From NCBI GenBank assembly GCA_036689225.1, contig CP144768.1, positions 127,311-159,310 of the forward strand: a DNA stretch of 32,000 bases, written 5' to 3'. The notes beneath the pieces are model-generated. The model was given only the letters and a program-made list of their open reading frames with translations, searched no databases and was not told where the DNA came from. This document shows positions 554-23,929 of this stretch, one piece after another; the first letter of the stretch is position 1, and every line of letters starts with the position of its first letter. Source of the stretch: Candidatus Saccharimonadota bacterium (GTDB taxonomy: Bacteria; Pseudomonadota; Gammaproteobacteria; Enterobacterales; Enterobacteriaceae). Both the position numbers and the translations under genes were made by a program.

Positions 554-1027
554 TTAAATCTTATATAAATAATTATAATGTGCATTAGCTAATGCTAATG
601 CATCAGTAATATTAAAATTATATATTCTATTTATATTAAATTTTTTACATATAAATTTACTAATATATTTCTTATTAACATTACCATTAAAAGTTATAGA
701 TTTTCTAATTTTTTTAATATTATATTCAAAAAAATTTATATTATTTAATAAAGCAATAGATATAACTATTCCAGACAATTTACTAAGTTTAATTAAAACA
801 TCATAATTTTTAAAATAAAAAAATTTTTCTATAACTAAATAATTAGGTTTATAATTTATACAAATTTTTAATATATTAATATACATATCATATAATCTAT
901 CATTAAAATTTATAAATTTACTATTAATACAACCACTATTAAAATATTTAAGTTTATTATTAAATACATCTAAAATACCATATCCAGTACAATATGTACC
1001 TAAATCAATACCTATAATTCTTTTCAC
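554..1027 (-). CDS. ruvC: Holliday junction resolvase RuvC (157 aa)
   Basis: The N-terminus MKRIIGIDLGTYCTGYGIL matches the RuvC catalytic N-terminal motif (IxGIDPGxxxTGYG). The length fits, and it sits beside aspS as in enterobacteria. Confidence 0.8.
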   Translation of the reverse strand: MKRIIGIDLGTYCTGYGILDVFNNKLKYFNSGCINSKFINFNDRLYDMYINILKICINYKPNYLVIEKFFYFKNYDVLIKLSKLSGIVISIALLNNINFFEYNIKKIRKSITFNGNVNKKYISKFICKKFNINRIYNFNITDALALANAHYNYLYKI

Positions 1028-1044
1028 AAATAAAATCCAAAATT

Positions 1045-2700
1045 TTAATCAGGTGAACCAGTTAATAAACAAGTACCAGAAGTAGTTTTAGGAAAAGCAA
1101 TAACATCTTTTATACTTTTAACATTAGCTAATAACATAATTAATCTATCTAAACCTAAAGCTATACCTAAATGAGGAGGAGCACCATATTTTAATGAATT
1201 TAAAAAAAAATTATATCTTTCTTTAATACCTAATATATTAAATATTTCCTTTTGTAAATCATAATTATGTATTCTTTGAGAACCACTACCTATTTCATAA
1301 CCATTAATAACTAAATCATAAGAATTAGCTAATAATAAATTATAATTATTTATAGATTTTAATTTAGATAAATTAATATTTAATGGCATAGTAAACGGAT
1401 GATGATAAGCATTAATTTTATTATATTTATCATAATAAAACATAGGAAAATTAATTATTCAAATAGGATAAAATCCTTTTTTAAATAAATTAAAAAAATT
1501 ACAATAATAATTTCTTATTTCAACTAAAAAATTTAAATCTAAATAATTATCTAATAAAATTATAGAAATAAAAGTATTTACAGATACATTTAAATATAAA
1601 AGAATATTATTAATACAAAATTTATCAATATTTAATTTACCAAAAATTTTATATTTAAAATTTTTATTTTTTATATTATAAACATAAATACAAAAATATT
1701 TATTTATTTTTTTTATTTTAAAAAAATTAAATATTAAATCTATTTTTGATATATCAAAAACATTATTAATTATAATAGTTTTTATATTATCTATTTTATA
1801 ATTTTTAAATAAATTTTTTAATAAAAACAAAGAAAAATTAAAATTATATTCTACAATATTACGTAAATCAGGTTTATCAGTACCATAAATATTAATTGAA
1901 TCTATATAATTTATTTTTTTAAAAAAACTATTAATTTTATAATTTTTAAATTTTAATCATATATTAAAAATTAATTTATTTATTAAATTATATAAAACAT
2001 CAAAATCAACAAAAGACATTTCTATATCTAATTGAGTAAACTCAGGTTGTCTATCAGAACGTAAATTTTCATCTCTAAAACATTTAACAATTTGATAATA
2101 TTTATTAATACCAGAAATCATTAATAATTGTTTAAATATTTGAGGAGATTGAGGTAAAGAATAAAATTTATCATTATATATTCTACTAATAATTTTATAA
2201 CTATTTGCTCCTTCAGGAAAAGATTTAGATAAAAAAGGAGTTTCTATTTCAATAAAATTATTTTTAATAAAATAACTATTAATAAAAAATTTAATATTAG
2301 ATTTTAATTTTATTATTTTTAACATATCATTTCTTCTTAAATCTAAATAACGATATTTTAATCTAATATTTTCAGAATTATTATTATTATATATATCCAA
2401 AGGTAAAGATATAGAATAATTTAATATATTTATATTATAAGCTAAAACTTCAAAATCATTAGAATTAATTTTATTTTTTAAAATACCAAATACCTGTATA
2501 CAAGACTCATTATTTAATAACAAAATATCATTTCATAAATGAGTTATATTTTTTTTACATAATACTTGTATATTTCCACTTATATCTCTAAAATTTATAA
2601 ATATTATATTTTTAAATATCCTTATATTATTAACTCATCCAAATAAATTAACTTCTTTATTAATATCTTTATTTTCCAAAAAATTACAATAAATATTCAT
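1045..2700 (-). CDS. aspS: Aspartyl-tRNA synthetase (551 aa), spanning several in-frame TGA(Trp) codons
   Basis: Track ORFs 1045-1443, 1459-1830 and 1957-2523 share one frame, and I checked the gaps for TAA/TAG and found none. The N-terminus MNIYCNFL...LFGWVNNIRIF...FINFRDISGNIQV resembles E. coli MRTEYCGQL..LCGWVNRRRDLG..FIDMRDREGIVQV. Also present are YGTDKPDLRN, FRDENLRSDRQPEFTQLD (class II motif 2) and GLDRLIMLL (motif 3). Confidence 0.95.
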
Positions 2701-2810
2701 AATAAATACTCAACTATAAATTATAAAAAATAAAAAATAAATATAATTAATTATAATAAATATTTTATAAATAATAAATAATTAAAAATAAAATAATAAT
2801 ATAATAAAAT

Positions 2811-4523
2811 ATGAATATAAAAAAAATAATAATTAAAGAAATAGATAGTATTTTAAAAAAAAATAATATAATAAAAAAATATAATTATAATATAAAAAAT
2901 AATTATAAATTTAGTGATTATCAAATATATGGAATTATAAATATATCAAATAAAGAAAATATAAATATAAATAAAATAATTAATATATTTAAAAAAAAAA
3001 TAAAAAAATATAAAATATTTAAAAAAATAAATATTATAAAACCAGGAATAATAAATATATTTTTAAAAAAAAAAGAAATAGAAAAAATAATAAATAAAAA
3101 ATCAAAAATTAAAAATTTTGGAATAAAAAAAACAAAAAAAAAAAAAATAATTATAGATTATTCATCACCTAATATATCAAAAGAAATGCATATAGGTCAT
3201 TTAAGATCAACAATATTAGGTGATTGTATATCAAATATATCATCATTTTTAGGAAATAAAATTATAAAAATTAATCATATAGGTGATTGAGGAACTAATT
3301 TTGGAATGATAATAACTTTTATTAAAGAAAATAAAATAAAATTAAAAAATATTAATATAAAAAAAATAGAAAAAATATATAAAAAATCACAAAATATTTT
3401 TATTAAAAATAAAAAATTTGCAAAAAAATGTAGATTAAATACATTAAAATTACAAAAAAAAAATAAATATAATATTAATATATGAAAAAAAATTACCAAT
3501 ATAAGTATATTGGAAAATCAAAAAATATATAAAAAATTAAATGTAAAATTAAATAAAAAAAATATATTTGGAGAAAGTTATTATAAAAATAAAATAAAAT
3601 ATATAATAAAAGATTTAATAAAAAAAAAAATAGCAATAAAAGAAAAAAAAACAATTATTATAAAAAATAAAAAAAATAAATATAATATAATAATTCAAAA
3701 AAAAGATGGAGCATATTTATATAGTACTATAGATATAGCATGTATAAAATATAGATATGAAAAATATAAAATTAATAAAATAATATATTTAACAGATATT
3801 AGACAAAAAGAATATATGGAAAATATATTTTCAATAGTTAAAAAAGCAAAATATTTACCAAAAAAAATTAAATTAATACATTATTTTTTTGGAAATATAT
3901 TAAATAAAAATGGTAAACCATTTAAAACAAGAAAAGGAAATAATATAAAATTAAAAAAAATAATTAAAAAAACTATAAAATATACAAAAAATAAAATTAT
4001 TAAAAAATATAAAAATAAAAAAATTAATAAACAAAAAATATATAGAATATCAAAAAAAATAGCTATAGGAGCTATAAAATATATGGATTTATCAAAAAAA
4101 AGAACAAAAAATTATATATTTAATTTAAAAAAAATATTATTATTTAATAATAACACTGGACCATATATACAATATGCTTATGCAAGAATAATATCATTAT
4201 TAAAAAAAAATAATACTAATATAACTAAATGTATAAAAAACAAATTTTATATTAAAAATAATTTAGAATTTAAAATATCAAAAAAAATATTAAATTTTGA
4301 AGAAATAATTAAAAAATCATATAAATATGGAATTACACATGAAATATGTAAATATTTATATAATTTAACAATATATTTTTCTAAATTATATGAATCAGAA
4401 AATATAAAAAATATAAAAAATATAAAAAAAAAAAATAGTAGATTAAAATTAATATCAATTATAGGAAAAATAATTAAAATATGTTTAAATATTTTAGGAA
4501 TACCTATATTAAAAAAAATATAA
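2811..4523 (+). CDS. argS: Arginyl-tRNA synthetase (570 aa), with in-frame TGA at 3288 and 3483
   Basis: [21 protein letters not shown] (HIGH motif) is followed by HIGD-TGA-GTNFGM, matching the conserved HxGDWGxQFGM. The C-terminal part [11 protein letters not shown] is typical. Fragments 2811-3290 and 3510-4523 are in the same frame. Confidence 0.95.
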
Positions 4524-4527
4524 TTAA

Positions 4528-5370
4528 TTATTTAATTTTTTGTCCAATAGTAAAACGAAATTTATTATTATAATCTTTATAAGAATAAATATTATAATAA
4601 CCTTTAAAATTAAAAAAAAAATTAATTACATCAATTTGAGTAAAACAATGTTCAATAATTAATCATCCATAATTATATAAATAATCATAAGAATTTAATA
4701 TTATTAATATAATATCTTTAATACCATTATTATTAGAAAATAAACTAATATAAGATTCAAATTTAATATCATTATTAAATTTAAAAAAATATTTATTAAT
4801 ATATGGAGGATTACTAATAATAATATCAAATAGTATTTTTTTTTTTTTAAAATAAGAAAATCAATTACTTTTAATAAAAAAAACATTATTAACATTTAAT
4901 TTTAAAGAATTATATTTAGATAAATTAATACATAATTCATTAATATCAATTCCAAAAACATAAGTTTTTGGACAAAATTTAGCTATAGAAATAGCAATAA
5001 CTCCTGATCCTGTACCTAAATCAAGTATTTTTTTAAAATTATTAATTTTAATTAAATAAATAACATATTCAACCATTAATTCAGTATCTTGCCTAGGTAT
5101 AAAAACATCAAAATATACTTTATATTCTAAAGATAAAAAATAACATTTATTTATTATATAATTAATAGGATATCCTTTTAATCTTTTAATAAATAAAAAA
5201 TTTAAAAATGATAATTCTAAATAATTTAATTTATAAAATTTATTATTTAAAATAATTCATATTATATTTTTATTTAATACATATTTTAATAATAATAAAC
5301 AATCTTCATATATATAATTATTATATATATAATATAATTTTATATTATCTAATCATTTATAAATATACAT
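4528..5370 (-). CDS. prmC: Release-factor glutamine methyltransferase PrmC/HemK (280 aa)
   Basis: Motifs seen are FIPRQDTELMVEY, LDLGTGSGVIAISIA (SAM-binding) and FDIIISNPPYI (NPPY). In-frame TGA codons lie at 4633, 4861, 5257 and 5353. The start lies 2 nt after the prfA stop, as in the enterobacterial prfA-prmC operon. Confidence 0.9.
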
Positions 5371-17935: not shown

Positions 17936-19231
<1,296 letters not shown>

Positions 19232-19435
19232 ATAATATACTCCATATAATAATTATATATATTTAATAATATTATTAAATATATTATTATAATAAATATT
19301 ATTTCAAAATATTATATCATATAATAATAAAATATTATAATTAACAAATAAACAAATATATATTACATAAAATAATTAAAATATATAAAATATAATATAT
19401 TATTTTATTATTTATAATATATAAATATTATAATA

Positions 19436-21421
19436 TTATTTATATATTTTTCTATTAAATTTATCATTTATACCAGATTTTCTATAAAAATAAGTATTTA
19501 TTTTATCTCTTCATTCACATGAATGAAGATATTGTTTTCTTAATCTTTTTTTGACATTATAAAATATATTTTTTTTTATATAAAATTTTAATTTATTTCA
19601 TAATTTAATTCATTTATAAACATTTTTTACACCTTCAAAATGAGTATTATATATATATTGAATTATAGAAATTTTATATTTTTTAATTATATATTTATAA
19701 GATAAATTATGAAAAAATAATAATAATTTCTTAGGACATCTATTTATATCACTAAATTTTTTAATATTTTCATCAAAATATTGTTTTATAAAATTAGAAC
19801 CATTAAAAGTTCTATTATATCCTAAACTATATCTATTAGAATAATGATATATACCTGAATCTAAATATTCATATCCATCTATATTTGGAACATAATTATT
19901 TTTTGGATCAACCATTCCATTTAAACCTAATGGAGAAGTATAATTTTCATAATTTTGTCAACTATTATACATTATTTTTCTAATTATATTTATAACTTTT
20001 TTATTTTTATTTATAGATAATATTATTCATTCTTTTAATAAATTATTTAAATTTTTATTTAAATTTCATAATATATTGCCATAACAAAATATATTAGATT
20101 GAGATAAATAATGTCCAGTTCAATTATAATTATTTCCTATATTAGATATAACAGAAACACCAAAATATTTACATTTTTTATGTAATTTTCCTGAAATTAA
20201 TTTTTTAATAGTACATTTTCTATTTTTATAATAATAAGTATTAAAATTAAATATATTTTTTCATTGCATAGGTAATCAACATAAATCTATTTGTTGTCCA
20301 GTAAATTCTTGATTAATTTGTAATTCTAATATTTGAGAAGTTTTATCCATAGAACCTAATAAAGGAGAAACAGGTTCTCTAATTTGAAAACCTATTGGAT
20401 CATTAATTTGTAATATAACATTATTTGGAAATAAACCATTTAATTTATTAAAATACTTATAATTATTTAATATTTTATCATTATTTTTATTTCTTCAATT
20501 TTGTTTTTTATATATATCACATTTTCATACTAAAATACCATTAAAATAATTTAAATTTTTAGCTATATATTTACAACCATCTATATGATTTCTATTATAA
20601 TATAAAGGTCCTTTATTATTTTTACAATCAGTCTTTACAAAAAAACCTCCAAAATTTGGCATATATGAATATATTTCTTCTATTTTTTTTTCTCATCAAT
20701 ATATAACATTATTATCTAATGGATCAAATGTATCTAATTTTCCTAATATTATAGGACTTTTATAATTAATAGATAAAAACATTTTTATATTATATTTATT
20801 TAATATATTATATATTTCATAAATTTGAATTAATCAATTTTTAGTAATTAAAAAAGTAGAAAATATATTAACATTAATATTATTTATACATATTGCATTT
20901 ATTCTAATACTACATAATAATCTACAATAATATCTTATTCTATAAAAATCAAAATTAATATTATTTTTTAAAAAAAAAATAGAATTACCAGAATATCCTT
21001 TTTCTATTGAACCATCTAAATTATCTAAATGTTGTACAATTCTTAATTTAACTAATGGTTTTTCATGTATAAATATATTATTTATATCAAAATTATTTAA
21101 TTGAATATTATTAAATAAATGATATAAAGAATATAAAAATCCTTTTATATTCTTAGAAAAAATAAAAATTTTATTTTTAATATTTTTTATTAAATATTCT
21201 TCATCATCAAAATTTTTATTATTAAGAAATATTAAACTTGATATTTTAATTTTATTTGTAAATACTACATAATTTTTATCTATAAAATATAATATCTCCT
21301 CTTTTAAAAAAAAATATTTTTTTTTTATATATATATATTTAAATATTTTTTTATATTTTTTTTTATTTAAAAAATTATCAATATTAACTAATCAACATTT
21401 CGAAAAATTTTCTTTTATCAT
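19436..21421 (-). CDS. aguA: Alpha-glucuronidase, glycoside hydrolase family 67 (661 aa), containing 15 in-frame TGA(Trp) codons
   Basis: Joined through TGA, the frame is open from the ATG at 21421-21419 to TAA at 19436. Recognisable GH67 blocks are [142 protein letters not shown]...[12 protein letters not shown] and [22 protein letters not shown]. No N-terminal signal peptide is seen. Confidence 0.85.
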
Positions 21422-21477
21422 TTTATTAAAATATTATTATTAATAATACATTTTTTAATTATATATTATAATAAAAT

Positions 21478-22287
21478 ATGGAAAAAAAAAAAATAAATAA
21501 AAATATTATTCCAAATATTAGAGGAATAAATATATATAATATATACCAAAATTTTTCTTTTATTAAAAAAATAAAGAAATATATAAAATATATAAATAAT
21601 ATTAAAATACTAATAAAATATAATAAAATAATAAATATAAAAAAATTTATAAATATAATAAAAATATGTAATAAAAAAAATATTAATTTAACTATAAATA
21701 TTAAATTATATAATTTTAAAAAAAAAAATAAAATTAAATATATAAAATATATAAAATATATTATTAATAATTTAAATATAAAAAAAATATTTATAAGTAT
21801 AAATTTACAATGTAAAAATATAAACGAATGATATCTCTTTTACAAAGATTTTATTTATATTTATAATTTAAAAAAAATAAATAATATAATTTTTATAAAT
21901 TATCCAAATAATTTTAAATATCCTAATTATTTAATTTTATATAAAATTAAAAAAATATTTAATATTTTCAAAAAAAATAATATTTTTTTATTAATATCTA
22001 TATATAATAAAATATATAGAAAAATAAAAAATTTAATACAATTTTTAAATTGTATAATAAATAAAAATATACCAATAGTTTTAAGTGAAATAAATTATAT
22101 TAATAATATAAAATTTTTATTAAATTTCTGTCAAAAAAAAAATATAAATTGATGAATAACACCTAAAAAATATAAAAATATTAATAAAAAAATAAATATA
22201 TCAAATATATCATCTATAATTTTTTGTAAAAATGGAATAAGACAAACATCAATAAAAAATCCTTACCCATATAATTATTATGGATAA
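21478..22287 (+). CDS. Divergent 269-aa protein, a putative clan GH-A (beta/alpha)8 glycoside hydrolase that is GH10 xylanase-like
   Basis: The frame is open under table 4, with TGA at 21829, 22150 and 22153. Its motif order resembles GH10. IRGINIYN sits near the N-terminus, CKNINEW parallels WDVxNE (acid/base), IFINYPNN parallels LFYNDYN, IPIVLSEINY parallels hhITELDh (nucleophile), and NINWWIT parallels the beta-8 TFWG. It is transcribed divergently from the GH67 gene. It is short for the family, and I could not place the conserved GxQxH His. Confidence 0.4.
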
Positions 22288-22295
22288 GGTTTTTT
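22254..22295. terminator. Symmetrical bidirectional intrinsic terminator between two convergent enzyme genes
   Basis: The structure is aaaaaat-CCTTACCCATA-taattat-TATGGATAAGG-tttttt. The stem is 11 bp with one mismatch and is unusually G+C-rich for this sequence. It is flanked by A6 upstream and T6 downstream, so it reads as hairpin plus U-tract on both strands. It overlaps the last codons of the plus-strand gene and lies 28 nt beyond the polygalacturonase stop. Confidence 0.65.
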
Positions 22296-22322
22296 ATAAT
22301 ATTACTCACTTTATTTAATCTT

Positions 22323-23570
22323 TTAGTTTAATTTTCTTGTAGGACAAATATTTCCATTAGCATTTTCATTTAAAATACCTTTAGCTGTAACATTAACCAT
22401 TTTTATTACAGAACCTTTTTTAATATTTACATTTGAAAATATAACTTCAATATTATTTCCTTTTATACCATTAAAAATAAAATTACCAGGTGTTAATACT
22501 TTTACTGAATCAAAATTTATATTTTTAAATTTAGGTATTTTATTTCCTTTAGCATTTTTATTATAAAACATATCTAAATATATAGGATTTTTAACATCTT
22601 TTATACATATATTTTTATATGTAATAAAACTTACTAAACCACCTCTAGAAATATCACTTTTAATACGTAAACCACTAGTTGTTCCATCCATAGATAAACC
22701 ATCTACTAAAATATCATTAACATTACCTAATGTTTCACTACCTATTGACATTCCATGACCTTTACCAAAATTATTATTTACAATAGATATATGAGATGTA
22801 GGACCATGAGAAGCTTTTATAGCTATATTATCATCTCCTGTACTAATATATGAATGTGCTATAGTAATATTACTTGATGATCCTGGATCTATACCATCAG
22901 TATTACGAGCATCAGCAGGAGTATTTATATTAACTCCTCAAACTGTAAGTCCATCCAAATTATTTGTAGAAACATGAAAATTAGGTGAATTTTTTATAGA
23001 TATTTTATAAAAAGTAAAATTTTTTGAATTCTTTATTACAATAAGTCTAGGTACATTTTGTGACTGATTTTTTTTTTGTGCTTCACTAGCTAAATTTCAC
23101 CATGTTTTTGTACTTCCTTTCATAACAGAATTACCTTGACCATCAATAATTCCTTCTCCATATATACCACTATTTATAGAATTATTAACTGTTATAAAAG
23201 GAATACATGATTTACCTATATTATCTAATTTACCACATTTGTTACCTCCATTATCATATAATAATGGATCAGGTATTGCAGATAATATAGTACCCTTATC
23301 TATTAATATTCCTCCATTAGAAGGTATATTTAATGGACCTGAATAAAAATGAAAATTTTTATTATCAGTAGATTTTAATTCTACTACCTTATTTTGTTTA
23401 GCACAATTATTTATTGCTTTTTGAATTACACTAGTATTATTTTTATTATTAGCTTTTAATACAATACAACTTGAAGGATTTACAGGTTCTTTAATATTAC
23501 GTGTATCTCCAGCTATAGCTGTATTTATAGCTAAAATACTTATTAAAATTAAATATATACTATTTTTCAT
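22323..23570 (-). CDS. pehA: Endo-polygalacturonase, glycoside hydrolase family 28 (415 aa), with an N-terminal Sec signal peptide
   Basis: Fragments 22323-22751 and 23097-23570 are in one frame. I translated the gap as ...TWWNLASEAQKK...PRLIVIKNSKNFTFYKISIKNSPNFHVST...ARNTDGIDPGSSSNITIAHSYISTGDDNIAIKA...NNNFGKGHGMSIGSE...GLRIKSD. All four GH28 signature motifs (NTD, DD, GHG, RIK) are intact, and the protein is colinear with Pectobacterium PehA. The signal peptide is MKNSIYLILISILAINTAIA/GD. An AGGA Shine-Dalgarno lies 5 nt upstream of the ATG. Confidence 0.92.
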
Positions 23571-23849
23571 ATATATCCTATATAAATTTATTTAATAAAG
23601 TAAGTAATAATCATAAATATTTTAATATTTAGATTATATTATTATAACATAAAAAAATATTATAAAATATTTTTAAAAAAAAAATAAATTTAATATAAAA
23701 AATTATATTAAATAACAAAATATATATTATAAAAATTTTAATAAATAAATTATATTAAAATAGAAAATAAAATTAATAATTATAAAATTTTTTAATATAA
23801 ATATATAAATTTATTTTTTTATATAAATATATGATATAATAAATAAATT

Positions 23850-23921
<72 letters not shown>

Positions 23922-23929
23922 TTTATAAA

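Follow-up and report, generated by a model that had tools for sequence, protein, structure and literature searches.

A plasmid-derived GH28 polygalacturonase gene in the chromosome of Candidatus Stammera capleta and the predicted Sec-dependent export of its product

A polygalacturonase (PG) is the reason for the symbiosis between tortoise beetles and their foregut symbiont, Candidatus Stammera capleta: the beetles have lost their own pectinases and depend on the symbiont enzyme for breakdown of the homogalacturonan of pectin. PG is universal in Stammera, and in a subset of strains the plasmids have been lost and integrated (bioRxiv 10.1101/2023.12.12.571295). The closest relatives of the gene analyzed here are carried by 46 small plasmids of this symbiont. 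The plasmid-borne PG, e.g., that of CP043986.1 from Chelymorpha alternans, is an orthologue displaying 86 to 88% amino acid identity, and it has in common with our gene the neighbors (an eroded open reading frame, ORF, and a GH67 gene), the upstream and downstream elements, the signal peptide, and the use of genetic code 4. Unlike the plasmid copies, the present copy is chromosomal, lies between eno and tRNA-Met, is not accompanied by RepA, and lacks a single Ser that follows the predicted signal peptide cleavage site in the closest relatives.

Among proteins of solved structure, the best relative is PehA from Pectobacterium carotovorum (PDB 1BHE; E = 2.2e-102). The mature proteins are ~48 to 50% identical over their full length and are alike in the Asp/Asp/Asp/His catalytic residues, in four Cys residues, and in their fold. 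PehA is a virulence enzyme of a plant pathogen, whereas the PG of Stammera is the digestive enzyme of a mutualist. PehA exits the cell via the Out type II secretion system; in contrast, no secretin is encoded in the genome analyzed here. The PGs from symbionts of Donaciinae reed beetles ('Ca. Macropleicola') form the sister clade (support, 98/95), with 51 to 57% identity, and are likewise located on small plasmids of reduced symbionts. One of these enzymes, Mmut-pPG, hydrolyzes polygalacturonate into oligomers (PMC7289800). The Donaciinae enzymes differ from that of Stammera in belonging to another symbiont lineage and another host subfamily, and the standard code was applied in annotating them.

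The window, i.e., the whole stretch of 32,000 nucleotides that was analyzed, corresponds to positions 127,311 to 159,310 of a genome consisting of one contig (268,407 bp; 14.8% G+C). The source of this genome is Ca. Stammera capleta. The features of the locus are the following, in window coordinates.

17936-19231: eno, one flank of the inserted segment
19342..23792, no strand assigned: segment with homology to RepA plasmid cargo of Stammera, between eno and tRNA-Met (82.7% identity to CP043986.1)
19436-21421, minus strand: GH67 alpha-glucuronidase gene (Pfam GH67 middle and C-terminal domains), part of the plasmid-like segment
21478-22287, plus strand: eroded 269-codon ORF, part of the plasmid-like segment
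22261..22289, minus strand: terminator-like hairpin of 11 pairs (4 G-C) with a T run after it, in common with the convergent gene
22305..22315, plus strand: 3' copy of the inverted repeat (CTCACTTTATT on the plus strand), between the stop codon and the terminator
22323..23570, minus strand: GH28 polygalacturonase (PG) gene of 415 codons and a TAA stop, with a frame that code 4 alone keeps open
22938..22940, minus strand: in-frame TGA for the invariant Trp211 (table 4 translation, 1BHE alignment, orthologues)
23097..23099, minus strand: in-frame TGA for Trp158, the second residue of an invariant WW pair (same evidence)
23511..23570, minus strand: predicted Sec (type I) signal peptide MKNSIYLILISILAINTAIA, codons 1 to 20, with predicted cleavage before G21 (hydrophobicity, PehA alignment, orthologues)
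23576..23579, minus strand: Shine-Dalgarno core AGGA, 5 nt before the ATG
23594..23604, minus strand: 5' copy of the inverted repeat, CTTACTTTATT, in the presumed 5' untranslated region, 34 nt before the ATG
23641..23649, minus strand: candidate extended -10 promoter TGtTATAAT, from the conserved upstream alignment
23849-23922: tRNA-Met, the other flank of the inserted segment

We hold with high confidence that PG is a host-serving GH28 endo-polygalacturonase of Stammera that is expressed, exported by the Sec pathway, and moved from plasmid to chromosome as proposed here. The gene would be transcribed from the conserved extended -10 promoter and translated from the AGGA site, which is present in the sequence and presumably functional, with UGA decoded as Trp at two invariant positions according to the code deduced from the genome and published for the symbiont. 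The pre-protein would be directed post-translationally by SecA to SecYE(G) and cleaved by LepB after Ala20, a predicted route for which the machinery is encoded. According to the model and the alignment, mature PG would fold as a right-handed beta-helix superposing on PehA, with the catalytic D/D/D/H residues in place, and, with no type II system to carry it out, it would most likely escape through a poorly anchored outer membrane, via leakage, vesicles, or lysis. The PG gene, the GH67 gene, and the eroded ORF would have moved together from a small RepA plasmid into the chromosome, at eno/tRNA-Met, with loss of the replication gene. Published work already covers the PG gene, how strongly it is expressed, and how well it is conserved: the observation made in the earlier note is correct but known. 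Since the literature already describes the role, expression, and constraint of PG, code 4, and moves from plasmid to chromosome, there is no new biology at the level stated there.

Positions 19342 to 23792 of the window match positions 680 to 5223 of the Chelymorpha alternans plasmid CP043986.1 (82.7% identity over ~4.5 kb), with the same order of PG, eroded ORF, and GH67. The remaining ORF of that plasmid encodes RepA (PF04796; E = 4.6e-29). Neither RepA nor the plasmid backbone was found anywhere in the genome and the segment is in the main contig, indicating that PG is not carried by a small RepA replicon here. The site is empty in 11 related Stammera chromosomes, in which eno is directly followed by tRNA-Met and cvpA-truA. 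All 45 genomes of the genus contain PG, which resides on a small contig or RepA plasmid in 42 to 43 of them, including a contig of 4.4 to 8 kb in all 12 relatives sampled. A location on the main contig was found only here and in one unrelated strain (G021; ~268.2 kb of contig, different position), in what looks like a separate event. In a maximum-likelihood tree, the present PG is sister to the plasmid copies of the Chelymorpha group (100/100), deep inside the Stammera clade. Because PG is nested in a plasmid-borne clade, the chromosomal state is derived. The search for a target-site duplication or a shared repeat at the insertion borders returned only A+T-rich noise. As a result of its chromosomal location, PG is presumably present in a single copy, versus a variable copy number for the plasmid, and the move may affect dosage control. 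The GH67 gene of the segment contains 15 in-frame TGAs.

The translation product obtained with table 4 matches the Pfam GH28 profile (PF00295) over residues 124 to 394 (197.3 bits; cutoff, 22.9; E = 4.5e-58), and the PF06045 (rhamnogalacturonan lyase) profile gave no match. The active-site motifs of the family are all present: NTDGID (residues 223 to 228), GDDN (245 to 248), GKGHGMSIGS (269 to 278, with GHG at 271 to 273), and RIKS (302 to 305, with RIK at 302 to 304). The earlier note had described NTDGID, GDDNIAIK, GHGMSIGSE, and RIKSD as intact and the protein as colinear with soft-rot PehA. All four motifs were recovered in the table 4 translation, and residues 22 to 397 of PG align with residues 2 to 375 of the 1BHE chain, i.e., over the full length, with gaps of just 1 or 2 residues. 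In this alignment, D225, D246, D247, and H272 of PG match catalytic residues D202, D223, D224, and H251 of 1BHE. The AF2 model of PG, built with 50 homologues, has a pLDDT of 93.5 and a pTM of 0.90 and is poor only at residues 1 to 20. In Foldseek comparisons, the model superposes on 1BHE with a TMt of 0.97 and a root mean square deviation (rmsd) of 1.3 A, versus TMt values of 0.45 to 0.69 and rmsd values of 4.7 to 8.2 A for exo-enzymes. The modeled structure is the right-handed parallel beta-helix of GH28. By analogy, based on colinearity with PehA, on the sister-clade enzyme, and on gut extracts, PG would hydrolyze alpha-1,4-polygalacturonate in the endo mode. Motifs, fold, and Sec signal peptide agree with the initial description of an intact, secreted endo-polygalacturonase of the PehA type.

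The coding frame and the mode of hydrolysis each admit another reading. Translation with table 11 splits the PG stretch into two pieces of 157 and 142 amino acids, so that PG would be a broken relic in which two premature TGA codons limit synthesis to the 157-residue N-terminal fragment. In keeping with this reading, the only tRNA-Trp of the genome (G000:C1:255782-255856) carries the anticodon CCA, not UCA. However, table 4 affords a single 415-residue frame in which the two TGAs encode W158 and W211, residues that are also Trp in PehA and invariant across 50 homologues. TGA accounts for 563 of the 584 in-frame Trp codons counted in the genome, versus 21 TGG codons. In-frame TGAs are present in the genes encoding SecY, SecA, LepB, SecE, YidC, and the release factor, and SecY, SecA, LepB, and others likewise require the decoding of TGA as Trp. 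The genome encodes a single class I release factor, which harbors the PxT motif of RF1 (PET) and GGQ and from which the SPF motif is absent; RF1 is thus the only release factor encoded. The tRNA-Trp displays a U11-A24 pair in its D stem, and code 4 has been published for Stammera (bioRxiv 10.1101/2023.12.12.571295). Against this evidence, the broken relic is hardly conceivable. The other reading, that PG is an exo-galacturonidase or an oligogalacturonide hydrolase rather than an endo-polygalacturonase, could account for the galacturonic acid monomers obtained from gut extracts of Stammera-carrying beetles. It is nonetheless improbable, since the endo-enzyme PehA is by far the best structural match of the model, without loop insertions, since the exo-enzymes fit the model much less well, and since Mmut-pPG of the sister clade releases dimers, trimers, and larger oligomers (PMC7289800). 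An intact endo-polygalacturonase translated with code 4 is therefore the reading that we retain.

The N terminus of PG, MK-NSIYLILISILAIN-TAIA/GD, comprises a basic n-region (K2) and a hydrophobic core with a 9-residue Kyte-Doolittle peak of 3.4, and Ala occupies positions -3 and -1 of the predicted cleavage site (A-I-A/G-D, then GDTR). The signal peptide was judged by inspection, which revealed neither a lipobox Cys nor a twin-arginine motif in it. G21 aligns with residue 1 of the crystallized mature PehA. This n-h-c pattern, the hydrophobicity peak, and the position of G21 are those expected for the Sec signal peptide with cleavage between AIA and GD that had been proposed. The signal peptide is conserved in 19 of 19 Stammera PG orthologues, 18 of which have an A/S-x-A/S motif before (x)GDTR. 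Of the two other ORFs of the island, neither GH67 nor the eroded 269-codon ORF has a hydrophobic N terminus. The release of GH67 must take a route other than that offered by the signal peptide of PG.

Export had been considered questionable in the earlier note, as yidC appeared severely truncated, and a lack of Sec translocon and signal peptidase genes elsewhere in the genome was to be looked for. A profile search of the genome recovered, above the cutoffs, SecY (282 bits), SecA (348 bits), LepB (signal peptidase I; 145 bits), and SecE (34 bits). A probable SecG scored 28 bits, just below the cutoff of 29.2, is full length, and adjoins a tRNA-Leu gene, as secG does in E. coli. Thus, the export of PG across the inner membrane is fully provided for. 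Regarding yidC (31185-31763, plus strand; 192 amino acids), the core of the insertase is complete (60KD_IMP profile positions 2 to 159 of 163), and YidC serves the insertion of membrane proteins, not secretion; for the inner membrane, the concern raised about export is not borne out. Located behind an rnpA-like ORF (30640-31035, plus strand), the gene does not encode an N-terminal periplasmic domain and looks minimal rather than broken. For SRP54/Ffh-FtsY, just weak P-loop matches below the cutoff were obtained, and the SRP M domain was not found at E <= 1 in this genome (marker completeness, 89.8%).

Passage across the outer membrane would take another route than in Pectobacterium. The profile of the type II secretin (PF00263) gave no match at E <= 1 in the 268-kb genome, so the route used by PehA is unavailable here and PG is not a substrate of type II secretion. 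BamA is encoded (133 bits). SecB, DsbA, the OmpA-type domain (Pal, OmpA), TolB, and Lpp were not found at E <= 1 in this genome (marker completeness, 89.8%). The cell envelope seems to be devoid of any known outer membrane tether. In E. coli, loss of Lpp, Pal, or Tol results in leakage of periplasmic proteins and shedding of vesicles. Since Lpp, Pal/OmpA, and TolB are all missing, PG most likely exits through a weakly tethered outer membrane. A literature search on the secretion of enzymes by Stammera yielded nothing specific.

Both the location of the gene and the release of its product can be explained differently. The chromosomal placement is that of one assembly and might be an artifact, the plasmid having been mis-joined into the single contig. 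This would fit the location of PG on a small contig in almost all genomes of the genus (42 to 43 of 45), and the junctions are in very A+T-rich spacers in which base-by-base alignment is impossible. We give little credit to an assembly error, since the assembly contains no RepA or plasmid backbone, the homology to the plasmid stops cleanly on either side, at flanks that are adjacent to each other in 11 relatives, and PG is also on the main contig of the unrelated strain G021. In addition, loss of plasmids after chromosomal integration has been published for a subset of strains, e.g., that of Terpsis quadrimaculata (bioRxiv 10.1101/2023.12.12.571295). Concerning release, PG might be liberated only by cell lysis, the signal peptide being vestigial or merely parking the enzyme in the periplasm. 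No dedicated outer membrane secretion system was found, and the GH67 enzyme of the same island has no signal peptide, so lysis alone could serve both enzymes. Release by lysis only deserves consideration but is rather unlikely: the n-h-c signal and the small residues at -3 and -1 have been kept in 19 of 19 lineages despite heavy A+T pressure, SecA, SecYE, and LepB have been retained in a genome of ~240 genes, and the four cysteines aligned with PehA cysteines never vary, in agreement with extracytoplasmic folding. We therefore favor a chromosomally integrated gene whose product is exported by the Sec pathway.

The 3' end of the 16S rRNA (...GGATCACCTCCTTA) retains CCUCC, indicating that the anti-Shine-Dalgarno sequence is intact. 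AGGA occurs at a suitable spacing upstream from 27 of 237 genes (11%), versus 2.8% at random positions. PG had been presented as one of the few genes with a clear AGGA site: the motif is present, and genes having it are a minority, but the site is not exceptional, as it ranks 34th of 237 by duplex energy, behind those of groES, groEL, dnaK, and fusA. Stronger evidence than rarity is provided by the G-rich core found at the same place in 19 of 19 Stammera orthologues. The candidate promoter TGtTATAAT, ~70 nt upstream from PG, is conserved in the aligned upstream regions of G000, G009, G007, and Cistudinella and differs at one position in Chelymorpha. The genome as a whole shows no enrichment of TGNTATAAT (65 occurrences seen, ~100 expected); since the promoter motif is no rarity here, it is conservation alone that argues for a promoter. 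At the position of the PG terminator, the orthologues have hairpins of different sequence. In sister strains, PG is the fourth most abundant transcript in the symbiotic organs (bioRxiv 10.1101/2023.12.12.571295), which supports the high expression that had been suggested.

The G+C content of PG is 24.0%, versus 14.8% for the genome, and ranks 16th among 240 ORFs, three of the higher-ranked ORFs being spurious frames within rRNA. The excess is wholly in codon positions 1 and 2 (GC1+2 of 34.4% versus a mean of 20.6%), and GC3 (3.4%) equals the genome mean. Thus, the raised G+C content reflects an amino acid composition held by selection, as for groEL, tuf, dnaK, and the ribosomal protein genes. 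The lower A+T bias reported in the earlier note is real, but its use as a signal of expression is not sustained; codon bias and foreign origin are likewise ruled out as explanations by the ordinary GC3.

The catalytic residues, four Cys, and three Trp are invariant in the 19 Stammera PG orthologues. The dN of PG relative to the nearest relatives (0.062 to 0.073) is lower than that of every neighboring gene compared by the same crude method (0.096 to 0.25), i.e., eno and its neighbor (0.096 to 0.113), truA (0.11 to 0.14), GH67 (0.12 to 0.13), cvpA (0.22), and the eroded ORF (0.22 to 0.25). The Nei-Gojobori dN/dS ratios (0.23 to 0.30) are inflated by the near fixation of synonymous sites at A/T and serve for comparison between genes only. 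The published omega value of PG is 0.035, as determined by codeml for sister strains (bioRxiv 10.1101/2023.12.12.571295). Invariant residues, the lowest local dN, and this omega value all support the claim of strong purifying selection.

The 11-mer CT(T/C)ACTTTATT is present in exactly two copies in the 268-kb genome, both flanking PG. Every plasmid of a nine-member Stammera clade (support, 100/98) carries this pair and no further copy, and the pair is absent from the other ten Stammera lineages compared. Across the clade, the 5' copy is 31 to 38 nt from the ATG, and the 3' copy drifts from 10 to 53 nt past the stop codon. Divergence is limited to two A-to-G replacements in the 3' copy, after which G-U pairs would still form; two-sided compensatory changes were not found in the repeat within the nine-member clade. 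The duplex formed by the 5' and 3' flanks of PG (-21.7 kcal/mol; z = -3.2 versus shuffles) ranks third among 235 genes, a suggestive rank that does not decide the matter in a genome with 85% A+T. It is a doubtful proposal that the repeat is a functional element dedicated to the key export product of the symbiont, acting as an mRNA-stabilizing stem between the 5' and 3' ends or as a pair of factor-binding sites.

TGG is far commoner in PG (35 TGG versus 26 TGA codons in 19 orthologues) than in the genome analyzed here (~3% TGG). W157, next to the TGA codon of W158, is encoded by TGG (window positions 23100-23102), and the codons of the WW pair are TGG plus TGA or TGG plus TGG, never TGA plus TGA, in the 16 orthologues with listed codon positions. 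Selection in favor of the cognate codon, PG being highly expressed, may explain the retention of TGG, and the standard code may still be in use in some Stammera lineages.

A PG of 62% identity (P0029) was found on a 478-kb contig assembled from a public sequencing run. This protein and a second one of the same kind branch between the clade formed by the Stammera and reed-beetle symbionts and the free-living Enterobacterales; P0029 may originate from another reduced pectinolytic symbiont.
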